A program made the position numbers and the translations under genes. 51,457 nucleotides of DNA, taken from a virus. Taxonomy: Duplodnaviria > Caudoviricetes. A model generated the notes under the pieces. It saw only the letters and a list, made by a program, of their open reading frames with translations, searched no databases and had not been told where the DNA came from. Below, in pieces: positions 2,336 through 43,027 of the stretch. Numbering within the stretch: position 1 is the first letter of the stretch; the number at the start of each line of letters is the position of its first letter. The DNA lies in IMG/VR virus record IMGVR_UViG_3300028586_000778, positions 1 through 51,457 of that record; one strand, written 5' to 3'.

Positions 2336-3351
2336 TTCCCGACTCCATAAATACGGACAGTTCCAGTAACGGAATACCCCGATCCGGCCGCGTGAATCCC
2401 AATGCCGGAATTTATTGCACCTTCATAATGATGGGCGCGACGCGCTTGGCCACGGATTGCCGAGGCGGTTGAAGTCAAACTAACGCCGTCGAAAGTAATG
2501 TTCTTAGACATATTTGCGGTTCTAACGCCGCGGACCGTGGCAAACCCACGGATGACACCATTGGAGGCGTCGGAAAGAGCAAGGCCCGTAACTGTGTTGG
2601 CAAGGGCGCCGCCTGCGTTCCCGGCGGCGTACGTCCCTGCCGATGGCACCTGACTGGTATAGAGCCGCAGAAGTGGCGGGAGATCGGCAGTGCTGAAAAT
2701 CTCTGGGATGTCAATCAGGTACGTGTCGTACAGATCCGAAAAGACGTCCGGGAAGGCAATCGCGGAAACCGGAATCGTTACGATTTGCTCGGCAATTAGC
2801 TGCGTAGCACCGCGCTGGCTTCCCGCGTCCCCGTTACGGTCGATGTAGACTGCCAGGGCGTCATCTTTCGCAAACGGACTTGCCGAGCTGCCTGCCCGGT
2901 GCACAAGCGTAAGGTTGCGATACCCCGAGCCGGATGCCACATTCAAAATATCGAATAGCATCCACTTAGTCGGGTCCGTTGCCTTGACCATGCGCACACC
3001 ACCCTTGACGATGCTGGACACGAGCGTGAGTGCATCGAAGACCCCCGACATATTCACACCGCTCATGGTGAGTGTATCCGCGCGCAGCACCGTAGCGGCA
3101 TTCTGAGTCGCGCTCGACAAGCGCAGCTTGCCGGGTCCGGGGTCGGCATCAGCGGTAGCGGTATCGAAAACGTACGGGAAGGCATAGGCGCCGCCGGACG
3201 CAAAGGCCGACATGGCGGCCTCGGTCGCATTTAGCTCTGCGGCGAACTTCGGCAGGTCGCGCATCAGGCCCGACATCTTGTTGTCGAAGTCCAGCTGGTC
3301 CTGCGACTGGTCCGGCATCTGGGCCGGGTCGAGCAATACAGAAATGGTCAT
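2332..3351 (-). CDS. Tail fibre / receptor-binding protein
   Basis: N-terminal PDQ..DFD.K attachment-like segment, ADPGPGKLRL motif, beta-rich C-terminal domain ending GTVRIYG; position in tail module. Confidence 0.6.
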   Translation of the reverse strand: MTISVLLDPAQMPDQSQDQLDFDNKMSGLMRDLPKFAAELNATEAAMSAFASGGAYAFPYVFDTATADADPGPGKLRLSSATQNAATVLRADTLTMSGVNMSGVFDALTLVSSIVKGGVRMVKATDPTKWMLFDILNVASGSGYRNLTLVHRAGSSASPFAKDDALAVYIDRNGDAGSQRGATQLIAEQIVTIPVSAIAFPDVFSDLYDTYLIDIPEIFSTADLPPLLRLYTSQVPSAGTYAAGNAGGALANTVTGLALSDASNGVIRGFATVRGVRTANMSKNITFDGVSLTSTASAIRGQARRAHHYEGAINSGIGIHAAGSGYSVTGTVRIYGVGK

Positions 3352-4391
3352 ACGGTCCCTTCAATTTGCATGGACATGTCCCAGCGGGTTTTGCCCTTCA
3401 CTACAGGCTTCAGGCTTGAGTACCGGCCGAAGGCGATCGCCAATCCATACTTCAGCGACCCGACCCACACGATGTTCTTCTGCCGGTAGGCGGCCATCAG
3501 CTCATACACCGCGTCGACCTGGTCAGCAGCGACCACGACATCCGCCGTGATGCGCTTCGCCCAGTTGCGCACCGTGGTCTTGCTGGTGCCGTCGAAGTTG
3601 AACGAGGTGTCGGAGAAATCCTTGATCTCGGCGCCGAGCGTCATCAGCGTCTTGCCCAAGTCCGCTGTCGGCCCGATCGCGCACATACCGCACTTCGGCA
3701 CGCCGCCAGGCTTGCGAATCGCGATGGTGACCAAGGCATTGGCGAACGGCGGCAGCTTCAGGCTCACCGCCCAGGTCTTGCGGCGGATCCGCTTGAAGCA
3801 CCAGTTGAAGAAGCTCGACGCTGAGGTCGACACCTTCAGCGACTGCTCCTCGCGGTAGACCAGCCCCCGGAACCGGTCGACCACCGACACCCTCACCTCG
3901 GCCGCATCGACGTTGCCGATGTAGAAGCCCTGGCTGATCACCTGCGGCGACACCACGATGATGATTTCCTCCGGGTTGGAGGTCTGGGTGTTGTTGTACT
4001 GGTCCAGCATCGCCCAGCAGTTGGTGGCGCCGCGCGGGGTCCATGCGGTGGTGTCCGCCAAGGCCTTGCCAACGTTGCCGGCGATGAGCGACTGGAACAC
4101 GTTGTGGCTCGCTGGGTCGTAGACCAGCGCATCCTTCGCGTAGGTCGTCGTCGCGCTGTAAAGCGGCTCGGCGATCGGCACGTTCGAATACACCAGGCCG
4201 GCGCCGGCGCCGAGAACCTCACCAGCATCGAGCAAGGCATACGGCGCCTTGCTCAGGTCGGCCGGGTCGTAGGTGACCCGCAAGGTATTGGGCGGCGCCA
4301 TCTGCTGCACGCCGTTCCGGTCGTAGTACGGTGCCGGATCGGCGCGCGTGCAGGTGACGTCGCCCAGGGCGACAGGTTCGATGATATCCAT
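3348..4391 (-). CDS. Tail tip / distal tail protein
   Basis: Directly after tape measure; contains a short carbohydrate-binding-like segment (YSATTTYAKDALV...W) and IKDFSD..FNFDG motif. Confidence 0.55.
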   Translation of the reverse strand: MDIIEPVALGDVTCTRADPAPYYDRNGVQQMAPPNTLRVTYDPADLSKAPYALLDAGEVLGAGAGLVYSNVPIAEPLYSATTTYAKDALVYDPASHNVFQSLIAGNVGKALADTTAWTPRGATNCWAMLDQYNNTQTSNPEEIIIVVSPQVISQGFYIGNVDAAEVRVSVVDRFRGLVYREEQSLKVSTSASSFFNWCFKRIRRKTWAVSLKLPPFANALVTIAIRKPGGVPKCGMCAIGPTADLGKTLMTLGAEIKDFSDTSFNFDGTSKTTVRNWAKRITADVVVAADQVDAVYELMAAYRQKNIVWVGSLKYGLAIAFGRYSSLKPVVKGKTRWDMSMQIEGTV

Positions 4392-24492: not shown

Positions 24493-24747
24493 ATGAACTC
24501 GATCAACTGGACCCCGAAAGCAGCCAAGCAACTCCGCAAACTGGACAAGCAGGCACAAGCCCCGATCCGCGATGCGGTGACGAAGCTGGAGACGATGCCA
24601 AGCTGCCAGAATGTCAAAGCCCTGACGAACCACTCAAGCGGCTATAGACTCAGGGTTGGCAACTATAGGGTGTTGTTCGATTGGGATGGTCAGATCAAGA
24701 TTGTCGAAATCAACGAAGTGAGCAAACGCGATGAACGCACCTACTAA
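24493..24747 (+). CDS. higB: RelE/HigB-family toxin
   Basis: WTPKAAKQLRKL...VKAL...YRLRVGNYRVLF...V.KRDERTY; toxin-first order. Confidence 0.9.
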   Translation: MNSINWTPKAAKQLRKLDKQAQAPIRDAVTKLETMPSCQNVKALTNHSSGYRLRVGNYRVLFDWDGQIKIVEINEVSKRDERTY

Positions 24748-25051
24748 TATCCAGATCATCAACGGGCCGGACGGGAAACCGGCCTTTGTCGTCATCCCGT
24801 ATGACGAATACAAAAAGTCCCGCGCCGAAGGCATGATCCCTCACGAGGTGGTGAGCGCCACCGTCGACGGTGCCACGCCTGTGCGCGCCTGGCGCGAGCA
24901 CCTGCGTCTGACTCAAGCCGAGGTGGCCGAGCGCCTCGGCATTGCCCAGTCGTCCTATGCGAAGCAAGAGGCCAGCGATTCGTTGCGCCGCTCGAGCATC
25001 GAGAAGATCGCCGCCGCGCTGGGCATCACGTTCGAGCAGCTGGACATCTGA
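24731..25051 (+). CDS. higA: XRE-HTH antitoxin
   Basis: GKPAFVVIPYDEY N-terminus; PVRAWREHLRLTQAEVAERLGIAQSSYAKQE HTH; overlaps toxin. Confidence 0.88.
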   Translation: MNAPTNIQIINGPDGKPAFVVIPYDEYKKSRAEGMIPHEVVSATVDGATPVRAWREHLRLTQAEVAERLGIAQSSYAKQEASDSLRRSSIEKIAAALGITFEQLDI

Positions 25052-26279: not shown

Positions 26280-26602
26280 AGGTTTCTCCGTGGAATTCCT
26301 ACGAGATTACCATTGCGCTTGAAAGGCTGAGTTGCGCCCGAGATTTTCCAAATGGCAATTTCAACTACGCGGTTTGCATGCCTGTGTTGAAGATACAACA
26401 TTAATCCAGTTCTTTTGTCAGGCCGCTTTTTCTATTTGCGCCGCCGTAGCAGTGTTGTTACTTTATATCTACCGATGTGGTTTTTGGTCTTGATCGTCGT
26501 TCGTTAATTTAACAGTTAGGTCAGTTGCGTCTAATGACTCAAAAACCAAGCGGTATTTTTTTAAAAAAAAATTCGCAAGACCAATCAATTTGGAGGGAAA
26601 TC

Positions 26603-27109
26603 ATGACTCGACTTATATATGGGGCAGCTGGAGCGCTTTGCATAACGTTCGCAAACCTATCAGGTGCGCAGGAAGTATGCTTTAAGGATGCGAAAACCAA
26701 TTTCGAAACATGGAAGGCCCAAAATTCTAAAGTACTGAACGATCTCGCCGCGCAATACAACGCTTCCAAGGACCCTTCGAAAGAGATGGTCACCTATGCT
26801 GGCATGCGAATGCCAGTAGCAGCGGCGATAATGATTGAGGGCGAAAAGTATGGCCGCGAGGCTGACGGCAAAGTGGAGGTTGAGGTAAATGCCGCAAAGA
26901 AATGTTCAGGCCAAACTACTATTCCCCGTGGAGTATATGATCTCGCCAGGGAGTGGATGGGAGTTACAACAATTCTGCCTGAACAAGCTACCCGTATAGA
27001 TTTCGAAGAACTGCGCCGTGGGAATATTGCCGGGGGCGAGAACAGCGTCATCCGCGAGACAGGAAGGGCGATCGATAAAGTTGTGAATCCATTCCGCTGG
27101 AAGTGGTAG
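26603..27109 (+). CDS. Secreted/periplasmic moron protein (168 aa)
   Basis: GGAGG RBS, signal-peptide-like MTRLIYGAAGALCITFANLSGA-QEVC; AT-rich; opposite strand to flanks. Confidence 0.7.
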   Translation: MTRLIYGAAGALCITFANLSGAQEVCFKDAKTNFETWKAQNSKVLNDLAAQYNASKDPSKEMVTYAGMRMPVAAAIMIEGEKYGREADGKVEVEVNAAKKCSGQTTIPRGVYDLAREWMGVTTILPEQATRIDFEELRRGNIAGGENSVIRETGRAIDKVVNPFRWKW

Positions 27110-27352
27110 GGCTTTTTTACCCAGCGCTCCTTGCGCTACTCAAGTAGCCAAGCAGGCGTCTTCGGCGTCTCGATCTCTCTGCCCATCCCGATACAGAGCG
27201 TGTAGTGCCATTTATATGCTGTCTCGACGTCGACTGTAGCGATTGCTAAGAGGTATGCGGATCGCATCAAATTGTTAACACCTCTTGTAGCATGGAAATC
27301 CGGCTCAAGATTGGGTCAAGCATAGCAACCCCAACACTGGAGCCTGCCTTTC

Positions 27353-28165
27353 ATGGATGACGCAACCTGCAACGAAGATGGTCATAATTACAATGCGATC
27401 GAGTTTTCTCGCTTGCCCGCGCCTGAGCTTGAGCGCAAGCGCCGGCAACTAACATGTACTGAGTGCCGCCAACCTGCATTCTTCCGCAAGGAATCTCGTG
27501 ATGGCCGCGGCGCTCATTTTGGCGCTCGCCCCCACGCCGAAGGTTGCTCTCGTGCTGTTGAGGATCGCGATATCCGCCTTCCCGGTATCGGCCTCGGTCA
27601 GGACGAGCTGGCGAACTTCAACAACAGGATCGTTGTCGACTTGGATTACGGCGCAGCAGAAGCCCCTGTGCACTTTGATCCTGCGCCTGGAGCACCTCGG
27701 CGCCCACGCGGCGGCGCTCACTTCGGCGGAGATGGCACAGGCGTCGCCAATATGCACCGGCGCTTGCGACCGCTGCTCCGTCTGCTCGTCGAAGCGCCTA
27801 ACTTCCGATATTCCGACGCGATCATTGCGCTGGATGACCAGCCAGAGATGGCAGTCCGGGATTTCTTTGTTCATTTCGATGATGCTGATGACCGAAGCAA
27901 CAATTTTTTCAGGGGATTCTGGGGGCAGCTCACGGATGCCGGGGAGGGAATGCAGGGTGCACTCTGGCTAAACAGCGGCGGTCGCGCAGACATGAGTATC
28001 GGCCTCCCGGCGGAATTCCGTAATGATGTCATGGAGCGATTTAATATTGCGAACAAGGAAGAGTTGGCAGGCTCGTATATCTTAGTTCTCGGGACAATGA
28101 GAATTTCTCAAAACGGGAAGATCTTCTGCATGATCGATAGCCCAGCCGTGGTTGCAATCCTTTGA
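27353..28165 (+). CDS. Moron protein with CoiA-like N-terminal Zn ribbon (270 aa)
   Basis: LTCTEC...AHF...HAEGC; GGAG RBS; opposite strand to flanks. Confidence 0.7.
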   Translation: MDDATCNEDGHNYNAIEFSRLPAPELERKRRQLTCTECRQPAFFRKESRDGRGAHFGARPHAEGCSRAVEDRDIRLPGIGLGQDELANFNNRIVVDLDYGAAEAPVHFDPAPGAPRRPRGGAHFGGDGTGVANMHRRLRPLLRLLVEAPNFRYSDAIIALDDQPEMAVRDFFVHFDDADDRSNNFFRGFWGQLTDAGEGMQGALWLNSGGRADMSIGLPAEFRNDVMERFNIANKEELAGSYILVLGTMRISQNGKIFCMIDSPAVVAIL

Positions 28166-38247: not shown

Positions 38248-38562
38248 CTACCCTGCACGCACAAACGGTCTTGGCAGATCGGCTGCGGAGGTCATCACGT
38301 TTTCGCGCGATGGCGGGTTGCGACCAGCGCGGCCAAGTTCTGGCTTGGGATCGCTTGCCCGACGCGCTGGCACTGGCTCAGACAAGCCGAGCGCGACAAA
38401 CACTTCCGGTCGCGCGAGCCGCAAGAATTTCAGCTGAGCTTTCGGGATGCCTAACTTGCGCCACTCGGATACCGACGGCGGCTGGATCTCGCAAAGTCGA
38501 GCTACTTCTGACGTCCCGCCCAGGGCGTCGATGATTTCGTTGGGCGTGAGTTCTCGTTCCAT
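38248..38562 (-). CDS. cro: Cro-like repressor
   Basis: IIDALGGTSEVARLCEIQPPSVSEWRKLGIP HTH; divergent from cI. Confidence 0.85.
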   Translation of the reverse strand: MERELTPNEIIDALGGTSEVARLCEIQPPSVSEWRKLGIPKAQLKFLRLARPEVFVALGLSEPVPARRASDPKPELGRAGRNPPSRENVMTSAADLPRPFVRAG

Positions 38563-38568
38563 GGGCTT

Positions 38569-38643
38569 ATTTTAGGCATGCCTAAATTATTAGGCAAGCG
38601 TTTTTAGGCTTACCTCATCAAAAAAAGATTAGGATTACCTAAT
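38569..38643. promoter_or_regulatory. OR region: three operators, PR and PRM
   Basis: TTTAGGCATGCCTAAA (38571-38586), TTTAGGCTTACCTCAT (38603-38618), ATTAGGATTACCTAAT (38628-38643); minus-strand PR TTGCCT-17-TAAAAT (38597-38569); candidate PRM -10 TAGGAT (38630-38635). Confidence 0.85.
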
Positions 38644-39357
38644 ATGGAACAATGGAAATTACGACTTGCCGAAGCCCGCGCGGCCAAAGGCCTGAGCAAG
38701 AGCGATTTCGCGAAAGCGGTTCGCATCTCGCCGCCCACTGCTACGGATTGGGAGAAGAGCGTCGCCGACGGCGGCATCAAAGAAATTTCGGGCATCCGCC
38801 TCACGCGGGTCTGCGAGGTGCTGGGAGTCGACCCGACGTGGCTTTTGCATGGCAAAGGTTCTGGGCCGGCGCGCGTGCCCTCCCCGGATCGAATCGAAGA
38901 GCAGAAGCCGGTCCAGGGAGCAGAGCCTGACAGCGACGCATTCGTGCACATTCCGAAGGTGCGCCTGCTTGTCTCCGCAGGCGTGAGCGGTTTCGGAGTT
39001 GAGCCAGAGCCCTACGACGGCTCGACCGCGACCGTGCCGGCCGATTGGCTGCGCCGACGCCAGCTGCGCGCCGAGCACCTTATCGCGATCCGCGTGCGTG
39101 GGCGCAGCATGGAGCCAACCTTTAATGAGGGCGATACCGTCTTCATTAACAAAAAAGACATCGAGCCATCCGACGGCGCTGTTTTCGTCGTCAACTATGA
39201 GGGCGAGGACGTAATCAAACGTCTCTCGCGCGATGCTGGCGACTGGTGGCTCATGTCGGACAACTCGAATCAGCAACAATTCCACCGGAAGCTTTGTAAG
39301 GGTGCCGACTGCATCATTATTGGCCGCGTGGTCCGTAGCGAGCGAGAGCACTTCTAG
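38644..39357 (+). CDS. cI: CI repressor (XRE HTH + S24 peptidase)
   Basis: RLAEAR..KGLSKSDFAKAV HTH; SAG cleavage site; VRGRSMEP catalytic Ser; VIKRL Lys; IIGRVV. Confidence 0.93.
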   Translation: MEQWKLRLAEARAAKGLSKSDFAKAVRISPPTATDWEKSVADGGIKEISGIRLTRVCEVLGVDPTWLLHGKGSGPARVPSPDRIEEQKPVQGAEPDSDAFVHIPKVRLLVSAGVSGFGVEPEPYDGSTATVPADWLRRRQLRAEHLIAIRVRGRSMEPTFNEGDTVFINKKDIEPSDGAVFVVNYEGEDVIKRLSRDAGDWWLMSDNSNQQQFHRKLCKGADCIIIGRVVRSEREHF

Positions 39358-42176: not shown

Positions 42177-42200
42177 AGCCCCGTGTTCGGGGCTTTTTTT
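42177..42200 (+). terminator. Intrinsic terminator ending the cI-side cluster
   Basis: AGCCCCG-TGTT-CGGGGCT-TTTTTT. Confidence 0.8.
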
Positions 42201-42559
42201 ACGCCCCGCGTGAAGAATTGGCACGGAAGCGCCGCGCTTTGCGAAGCACGAAACCACAGACTACCTTAGCCGTCAACGAGATGTCGGCGCACGGCGATGC
42301 TCGTTGTGGGATAGCAAAGGGCACTTTCGCCTGAGTGCGAGCGGCCTTTTCGTCAGCTACTCGGCGCGCCACCTCAGCACAGGCCGTCAATTGCTCGAGC
42401 AGATCATCGTCGATCTCAATTGTGCTGTAACGCTTGGGCCAGCCAGCCTGCAGCGGGTACGGAATGCCCAGCAGTGCGGCCTCGCCTCGCGTCAGCGCCT
42501 TCGCCTTCGTTCCCCTGCGCCAGGTAGCCCGACAGGGTCATTTTTTTCGCCATTCGCGG

Positions 42560-42954
42560 CCTTTTTTTCTTTTCGCACCTTGTATAGGTACTAACAACAC
42601 CGAATAGAGGTACTGCTTCTTCTGTATCTGCTCATCCTCTAACTTCAACCCCAGTCTGGGTTTCGTACTATCGGGGGCTGGGACGAAGACTCAGCTTTCC
42701 TGTCGAATGCGGAGCCTTTACGTATTAGATCGGTACGCCGTCTACTACGACTCGTCAGCCTTTCCGGTCCGCAGGTGCTAACTTCGCTGCCCGCGTGCGT
42801 ATCTCAGACCATTCCCACAGTACGCCTATCCCCTCACCCCTGCCGGCGGTTCCCGACGAGTGAAGCGGCTGATGCCGTCAGCTCGGTTCTTACGCGTGGA
42901 GCCGGCGGTTTTCCCTCCCTGCCCCATGCCTGCAATCAGCCGAACCCGGCCAAT
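42560..42954 (-). ncRNA. Putative structured non-coding RNA (about 400 nt), family not recognised
   Basis: No minus-strand ORF in the track; own promoter at 42961-42990; several stems and repeats; 3' end uncertain. Confidence 0.5.
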
Positions 42955-42960
42955 GCCCAG

Positions 42961-43027
42961 ATTGTACCTAAATATTTAGGCATACCTCAATATTTTTCTT
43001 GATTTGTTTTTAGGGATGCCTAATAAT
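42961..43027. promoter_or_regulatory. OL region: operators plus divergent promoters
   Basis: TTTAGGCATACCTCAA (42975-42990), TTTAGGGATGCCTAAT (43009-43024), half-site ACCTAAA (42966-42972); rightward TTGATT-17-AATAAT (42999-43027); leftward TTGAGG-18-TACAAT (42990-42961). Confidence 0.8.

Follow-up and report, generated by a model that had tools for sequence, protein, structure and literature searches.

A pseudoknotted RNA of the RF02932 family as a candidate replication origin in a lambdoid provirus

The stretch of viral DNA analysed here, referred to as the window, is a whole provirus record of 51,457 nucleotides with lambdoid gene order, and on the minus strand, below a leftward promoter overlapped by an operator, it carries a segment (42867-42661) predicted to encode a multi-pseudoknot RNA of about 200 nt, which probably has an origin role of some kind. 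We consider such a role likely because, in related phages, the RNA either has replication genes next to it or occurs where the initiator lacks its origin-binding half. The reading we prefer, with a probability of roughly 0.6, is that the element is an RNA-dependent phage origin acting in cis, at which the DNA would be opened as an RNA-DNA hybrid that replaces the origin-binding half of the initiator.

The RNA locus and its promoter

Along the window, the late genes are followed by an early leftward operon with cro-like and CII-like genes at its head, a CI-like repressor gene, accessory genes, a terminator, the RNA locus and a rightward operon containing RdgC-like, exonuclease, excisionase and integrase genes (Table 1). 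Gene orientation switches at the RNA locus, the same place at which the cumulative GC skew would turn. Elsewhere in the window, a RelE-like toxin and HTH antitoxin pair (24493-25051, plus strand) adjoins a tRNA gene (24439-24367), and two plus-strand genes of 194 and 270 codons, both missed by the codon model, lie within the otherwise minus-strand early-late region (26525-28165) and are possible morons.

Table 1. Positions of the features discussed in the text, in window coordinates unless a locus is named.
Feature	Position	Strand	Remarks
Leftward sigma-70-like promoter, TTGAGG-18-TACAAT	42990-42961	-	consensus scan
Operator over -35/spacer of leftward promoter	42976-42989		one mismatch; half-site next to it, 42970-42961
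Second operator palindrome, OR-type motif	43010-43023		overlaps rightward promoter-like site 42999-43027
5′ leader	42887-42955	-	clade-specific; hairpin 42950-42939; also ahead of the type B element
GCTGA/TCAGC hairpin	42868-42886	-	hardly varies within Massilia-type clade; not found in distant copies
RF02932 core (P1, P2, three pseudoknots)	42750-42867	-	covariation
P2	42825-42822/42800-42797	-	
3-bp pseudoknot	42842-42840/42820-42818	-	
Loop-loop pseudoknot	about 42810-42807/42770-42767	-	
H-type pseudoknot S1/S2	within RF02932 core	-	
3′ domain past the Rfam model	42661-42753	-	
Hairpin P5	42753-42721	-	beyond the Rfam model
Conserved URAAGG	42720-42715	-	
Hairpin P6	after URAAGG, to about 42688	-	
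Second copy of 3′ part of P5	42676-42661	-	able to pair with 5′ arm of P5
Purine/G-skewed tail	42554-42660	-	AGTACCT at 42614-42608 and 42592-42586; A-run plus AAGG ahead of next gene
Gene of ~120 codons, without known family	42199-42553	-	frameshift near 42515 in the window; kin have an intact copy
Terminator-like hairpin	42177-42194	+	end of convergent cI-accessory operon; terminator scan
CI-like repressor gene	38644-39357		
OR operators	38572-38642		
cro-like gene	38562-38248	-	
O-like/DnaD-like initiator gene, 229 residues	28838-29527	-	~35-residue peptide plus C-terminal domain
Type B element	L282:2376-2640 and 22 more loci (L281-L303)		~250 nt; diverged in L182, L442, L418, L419
Type C element	L429 about 3360-3670, L393, L432, L452 and about 40 more		~300 nt

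The original prediction placed a second promoter on the minus strand, under an operator, and both are present: the consensus scan found three promoter-like sites in 3.5 kb, against 0.5 expected by chance, and a palindrome with its neighbouring half-site overlaps the leftward promoter. The operator palindrome, TTAGG-N4-CCTAA, matches six times in the window, where 0.15 matches are expected; three of these are at OR, two at the RNA locus and one within cro. The last of these, at 38441-38454, is an operator-like site with one mismatch. The best -10 hexamer stands at the same distance from the RNA in 11 of the 19 loci of type A and in 19 of the 21 of type B, and the operators differ between loci. 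In distant phages, the RNA lies within the early operon, without a visible promoter of its own. As predicted, the minus strand has no U-tract terminator between 42960 and 42338; on the plus strand, a consensus scan of 42200-42990, which weak promoters would escape, found neither promoter nor terminator.

Identity and extent of the RNA

The original prediction could match the RNA to no named family. A covariance-model search of Rfam overturned this, the minus-strand segment 42867-42750 giving a full-length alignment with model positions 1-120 of RF02932, 'Betaproteobacteria-1 RNA', at 84.1 bits (gathering cut-off 49.4), and the core of the RNA is therefore an already catalogued family. The same search of the window segment returned no other family, and no plasmid RNA among them; the only type that Rfam gives for RF02932 is sRNA. 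Together with the covariation described below, the position-conserved promoter and the operators, the match upholds the claim of a conserved, covarying non-coding RNA below an operator-overlapped promoter.

The unit is shorter than the ~400 nt first proposed. Deep conservation covers only about 42867-42661, some 200 nt, which is all that distant copies keep, and the conserved structure reaches ~90 nt beyond the end of the Rfam model. Within the window's clade (15 close kin), the core is 94% identical, the 3′ domain 84%, the tail 76% and the 5′ leader 54%. The stems listed at the outset all exist in the sequence, and two of them, GCGTA/TACGC and GCTGA/TCAGC, are 99% and 100% paired in these kin, but three others are weaker (CCCAG/CTGGG 79%, CTTC/GAAG 82% and TAGAGG/CCTCTA 72% paired, with 0-2 two-sided changes); GCCG/CGGC is 85% paired, with 10 two-sided changes. 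The direct repeat GGGA(A)CCGCCGGC is not kept in the 15 kin, its upstream copy being freely variable, while both copies of the repeated AGTACCT persist in 14 of the 15. As a whole, the segment folds only modestly better than its shuffles (z -2.3).

Homologues were collected by pattern scans, which gave 24 and 26 viral loci (overlapping sets), three genome loci and 56 metagenome loci; removal of near-copies left 56 loci, of which 54 were aligned. Three pattern matches (L043, L093, L107) were due to chance and were dropped. Twenty of the first 24 viral loci were scanned against Rfam, and all 20 scored above the RF02932 cut-off. The copies collected come mostly from phage records. The nearest named carriers of the window's RNA are two Massilia genomes, and nine of the 151 genomes in the family around one of them carry it. 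With the segment as query, blastn found no match in phages or among 72,556 plasmids. Among 23 listed sequencing runs, none shared half of the segment's words. Four of the runs, all consisting of contigs, were compared with the segment directly; X12, probably a DNA run, contributed a contig of 245 nt that falls within the element. One RF02932 copy (L031 locus L030) stands in a record titled as a Saccharibacteria bin, a distant phylum, with phage-like gene context, and may belong to a mis-binned phage contig. A coding reading of the element was rejected, because the spacing of its anchors varies by single bases among homologues.

Structure and covariation

Mutual information across the 54 homologues recovered S1, P2, the loop-loop pseudoknot, the 3-bp pseudoknot and S2, as well as P5, which lies past the Rfam model, and all three pseudoknots show compensatory changes. 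The 27 named pairs are paired in 87.9% of cases, compared with 69% in shuffled and 31-39% in slid controls, and have 335 two-sided changes compared with 127, values to be read with the proviso that the structure was derived from the alignment used to test it, and that the search patterns had set S2 and part of S1 in advance. The invariant S2 pairs consequently prove nothing. P5 has two-sided changes at all five of its pairs. One position of S1 (columns 143-156) alternates between U.G and C.A, an isosteric swap typical of RNA helices.

These data bear on the polymer that folds. A structure formed in single-stranded DNA, as a minus-strand priming or helicase-loading signal, would fit the replication context described below equally well, and G-T pairs are possible in DNA. 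However, a position-conserved promoter points into the element, and G-U cells exceed A-C cells by 109 to 25 of 1242 (61 to 25 once the one pair set by the search pattern is removed), an excess which, like the U.G/C.A swap, fixes the strand better than the polymer; we consider a DNA signal extremely unlikely.

The 3′ domain contains an internal repeat, formed by two copies of the 3′ part of P5, and the two copies covary (6.1 nt matched within a locus compared with 4.4 nt across loci, p<1e-4, n=36, these being the copies left after thinning of 52 that could be parsed). Pairing of the 5′ arm of P5 is specific for each of the two copies (p 0.007 and 0.014; n=31, after removal of four rows with bad anchors). 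In the window's clade, the repeat comprises 5 nt only (CCGAT, plus a gapped TACG). Switching within the RNA alone can suffice to explain the repeat. A twin-hairpin model, in which the segment past P6 pairs with either repeat copy, was discarded for lack of specificity (p 0.48 and 0.20). The repeat copies differ from each other with a G>A/U>C bias (12 compared with 3), but this bias, compatible with wobble against an RNA template, was set aside, as most cases fell at one shared position.

The tail and the following gene

The tail is G-skewed in 31 of 36 copies, mildly so (mean 0.24). The earlier statement that no minus-strand ORF is met until 42390 is literally true, but the real gene starts at 42553 and is frameshifted in the window, whose copy is two bases shorter near 42515 than that of intact kin; the ORF at 42390-42199 is the tail of this gene, which in kin is intact, with 115-135 codons. 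The A-run at 42573-42560, first taken for the 3′ end of the RNA, stands just ahead of the gene and, because the gene starts at 42553, we infer that it is also the ribosome-binding region. Searches with the gene product returned neither a Pfam or PHROG family nor a longer homologue. At L174:6741 leftwards (G196), an HNH-like domain (identified by eye from its motif) is fused to a homologue of the product's N-terminal part, and the conserved C-terminal tail is in the next ORF, an arrangement that suggests that the 120-codon gene arose by deletion.

This gene lies 3′ of the RNA in all close kin and also 3′ of the type B element, and distant look-alikes follow the RNA in L101 and L116, as would be expected if the RNA were a riboswitch-like cis-regulatory leader. 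We regard that function as highly improbable: most distant copies have other genes downstream, the window keeps the RNA intact but has a broken gene, the start codon lies 110 nt away from the structure, and the sole candidate anti-stem, the pairing of CAGUAC with P2, had to be abandoned as a general feature (5.9 within loci compared with 6.0 across).

Gene context in distant phages

At least 19 of the 43 copies from outside Massilia have a PHROG-supported replication gene among their near neighbours, namely a primase gene just upstream in nine, a helicase or primase-helicase gene in two, and the gene for an O-like initiator with the C-terminal domain only in eight; the scan covered about half of 140 neighbour ORFs, picked by eye. 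The other 24 copies, many on short contigs, have no supported replication neighbour. In the cultured Acidovorax phage AP1, ParB-like, helicase and primase genes precede an unannotated gap in which RF02932 scores 93 bits. A complete record of 31.8 kb (G165) has, in order, a cro-like gene (weak match), the RNA, two small ORFs, ninB and ninG, and no initiator, primase or helicase was found in it. The lambdoid slot between cro and ninB/ninG normally holds O and P. In one relative (G160, L127:16933-17913), a BstA abortive-infection gene is immediately 3′ of the RNA slot.

The RNA also follows a cro-like gene, early in the rightward operon, in several distant phages, a position that would suit a nascent-RNA antiterminator of the put kind, or another transcriptional regulator of early operons; put sites are described, in the relevant section of PMC12360218, as promoter-proximal RNAs that act on RNA polymerase. 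Against such a regulator, to which we give little credence, the RNA is present in one copy per phage and often stands straight behind a primase gene, far from the promoter; in the window, where it does lie close to a promoter, it is followed by only one short, broken gene, and regulation of this kind does not predict a link with initiator truncation. Some copies lie beside terminase/portal or tRNA genes (L038, L465), and these, like the triple-pseudoknot core, the invariant loop bases and the Rfam type sRNA, would be in keeping with a ribozyme or a trans-acting sRNA without an origin role, the replication context being simply where early operons have room. This, too, seems improbable to us, as the slot is shared, in a mutually exclusive manner, with two further element types (B and C, below), the RNA is skewed towards truncated initiators, and the window segment matched no second Rfam family.

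The truncated initiator

The initiator encoded in the window aligns with initiator profiles over their C-terminal part alone, has 34 residues ahead of the domain, and is recognized by the PHROG 'DnaD-like helicase loader' (E 3e-16). None of 22 N-terminal queries detected an origin-binding domain in this protein, and a scan of 56 + 18 ORFs of the window revealed no P-like loader, DnaB or primase. Structural alignment of the domain with 2zc2 (VIA-align) gave Z 3.9 and an rmsd of 2.7 over 60 residues, tied with unrelated rows, and Foldseek returned no match at E<=0.001. The window and 14 other RNA-bearing phages have the C-terminal domain only, G165 has no initiator that could be found, and three phages keep a full-length protein. 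AT-rich stretches occur in none of 13 truncated compared with 14 of 18 full-length initiator genes, a measure that favours longer genes; the lowest 50-nt GC content in the window's initiator gene is 0.52, with no AT-rich stretch. Counts of iterons or repeats did not separate truncated from full-length genes. A coding reading upstream of the minimal initiators was rejected, because in-frame stops lie just 5′ of those ORFs. A helical N-terminal peptide of ~35 residues is common to truncated initiators of three C-terminal types (window 29527-29420; L128:7719, L241:11360, L251, L266, L137), and may resemble Ead/Ea22-type N-termini.

The same gene-context data would apply if the nascent or free RNA were a scaffold that binds and tethers the truncated initiator or the helicase, replacing the DNA-binding domain without a lasting hybrid. 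The invariant loop bases and the covarying U.G/C.A pair indicate a compact tertiary fold, and the shared N-terminal peptide could bind RNA. On the other hand, the protein partners differ (at least two C-terminal domain types, primase or helicase, and in G165 none that could be found), and in distant truncated initiators the domain is preceded by only 1-13 residues; we judge a scaffold unlikely.

Co-occurrence with truncated initiators and sibling elements

RF02932 is absent from all 13 records that encode close kin of the truncated initiator, an absence that at first counted against the origin idea. Seven of them carry instead another element, type B, and the remaining six are fragments or stop before the slot. 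Type B occupies the same slot as the RF02932-type RNA, with a like promoter and leader before it and the 42553-type gene after it, and contains a hairpin flanked by a covarying repeat of its own, GGG(A/G/C)U. It has no match in Rfam, and blastn with type B and L073 queries found no match in phages. A further conserved element, type C, precedes truncated initiators in other phages, often with a cro-like gene before it, and contains a long-range covarying helix identified by eye; it has no Rfam match and was never found beside RF02932. More ORF-poor stretches, each in one or two loci, lie 5′ of truncated initiators in L328 (about 3200-3500) and L424 (about 3100-3400).

In order to assess the association in phages chosen blind to the RNA, we took 40 phages by their RdgC gene alone and examined the early regions of 37. 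Type A or B RNA was present, in the same slot, in all six phages with a truncated initiator and in three of the 31 with a full-length one (G200, G210 and G218; Fisher p 3.6e-5). Since the six truncated phages form one clade on the RdgC tree (two changes), this p-value rests on no more than one or two events. When records selected by motif or by initiator are included, 15 of 16 truncated phages have the RNA, and the record of the last stops before the slot.

A second set comprised 160 loci picked by the initiator domain, 91 truncated, 56 full-length and 13 too near an end to be classed. RF02932-type RNA was found in 13 of the 91 truncated loci and in none of the 56 full-length ones (by sequence groups, 7 of 22 compared with 0 of 18, p 0.011), although all 13 positives came from one domain search, which gave no full-length controls; in the other search, the RNA was found in neither 21 truncated nor 56 full-length loci. 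With models of slot elements seeded from truncated loci, type C was detected in 40 more of the truncated loci and two minor types in five, and no locus had two types. The guess of a replication origin in the original prediction gains comparative support from the replication-gene neighbours and from this association with truncated initiators, but the three full-length carriers, and the 33 of 91 truncated loci in which no such element was detected within 4 kb, tell against it.

Discussion

If the preferred reading, an RNA-dependent origin acting in cis, is correct, CI would hold the leftward promoter off in the lysogen and induction would release it. The core would fold during transcription, while the 3′ part stays hybridized to the template over the purine-rich tail. 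The 5′ arm of P5 might then swap from its own partner to the downstream copy, or perhaps to the identical displaced DNA strand, and so keep the bubble open, and a replisome would be loaded on the exposed strand by the truncated initiator, by the helicase and primase of other phages or, where no phage gene was found, by host restart proteins. The 3′ end of the RNA may or may not be used as a primer. We put at slightly below even odds a broader proposal, that many lambdoid and related phages dropped the iteron-binding half of the initiator and start from a folded RNA, with RF02932 as one of at least three interchangeable, mutually exclusive families that would open DNA by strand exchange, the covarying repeat capturing the displaced strand.

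There are precedents for such a mechanism. At the ColE1 origin and at T4 oriF, as set out in the relevant part of PMC4412123, the transcript opens the origin as a persistent hybrid, either priming synthesis or exposing the displaced strand to helicase and primase, and ColE1 and MRB are termed the only RNA-initiated plasmid families in the corresponding part of PMC3035462. The window RNA would resemble ColE1 RNA II in being a promoter-driven structured RNA with a proposed persistent hybrid and no origin-binding Rep (PMC4412123, PMC3035462, sections on these origins), and its internal repeat could act like the rG/dC interaction. It differs in having no sequence or Rfam match to RNA I or RNA II and, in the consensus scan, no promoter for an antisense RNA I on the plus strand of the element; moreover, control in the phage is apparently by CI, and a truncated initiator or a helicase or primase is usually kept. 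The phage RNA may therefore work like a ColE1-type origin, but would not be a member of the ColE1 family.

The MRB plasmid origins are likewise Rep-free and RNA-dependent, with a transcript of ~250-500 nt, according to the part of PMC3035462 that treats them. They belong to Vibrionaceae plasmids and have an antisense RNA I, whereas the window is a prophage, with no match in the plasmid collection. T4 is a lytic phage with its own replisome. Its oriF and oriG, in the relevant section of PMC4412123, are phage origins made up of a promoter and a downstream hybrid-forming region, as proposed here, but are described there as promoter plus unwinding element, with no conserved folded RNA. The lambda O/P iteron origin shares with the RNA the early-operon slot occupied in distant phages, and O has the same kind of C-terminal initiator domain. 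Activation of the lambda origin depends on transcription and is repressed by CI. In contrast to lambda, the truncated initiators lack the N-terminal origin-binding domain and the AT-rich stretch within the gene, and no P-like loader was found in the window.

The Betaproteobacteria-1 motif was reportedly described in the supplement of one earlier paper. We found no paper on the function of the RF02932 RNA, although the supplement of the motif's presumed source may hold remarks on gene context; the main text of PMC5737381 does not mention Betaproteobacteria. The window RNA matches the full RF02932 model and differs from the family as catalogued by ~90 nt of extra structure and by its association with replication modules, and, as far as the literature searched goes, the extension at its 3′ end, its siblings and the link with initiator truncation seem not to have been described.

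Even if the origin role should fail, the longer model, the three pseudoknots and the siblings that share the slot are new structural facts. If it is true, the origin role would provide an orphan Rfam family with a function and would account for replication in phages without a recognizable origin-binding protein; it would also carry RNA-driven initiation beyond two plasmid families, into temperate phages, and provide compact origins that can be switched by a repressor. Were the strand-exchange reading also true, these RNAs would form a third RNA-based class of replicon after ColE1 and MRB, and the first under the control of CI.
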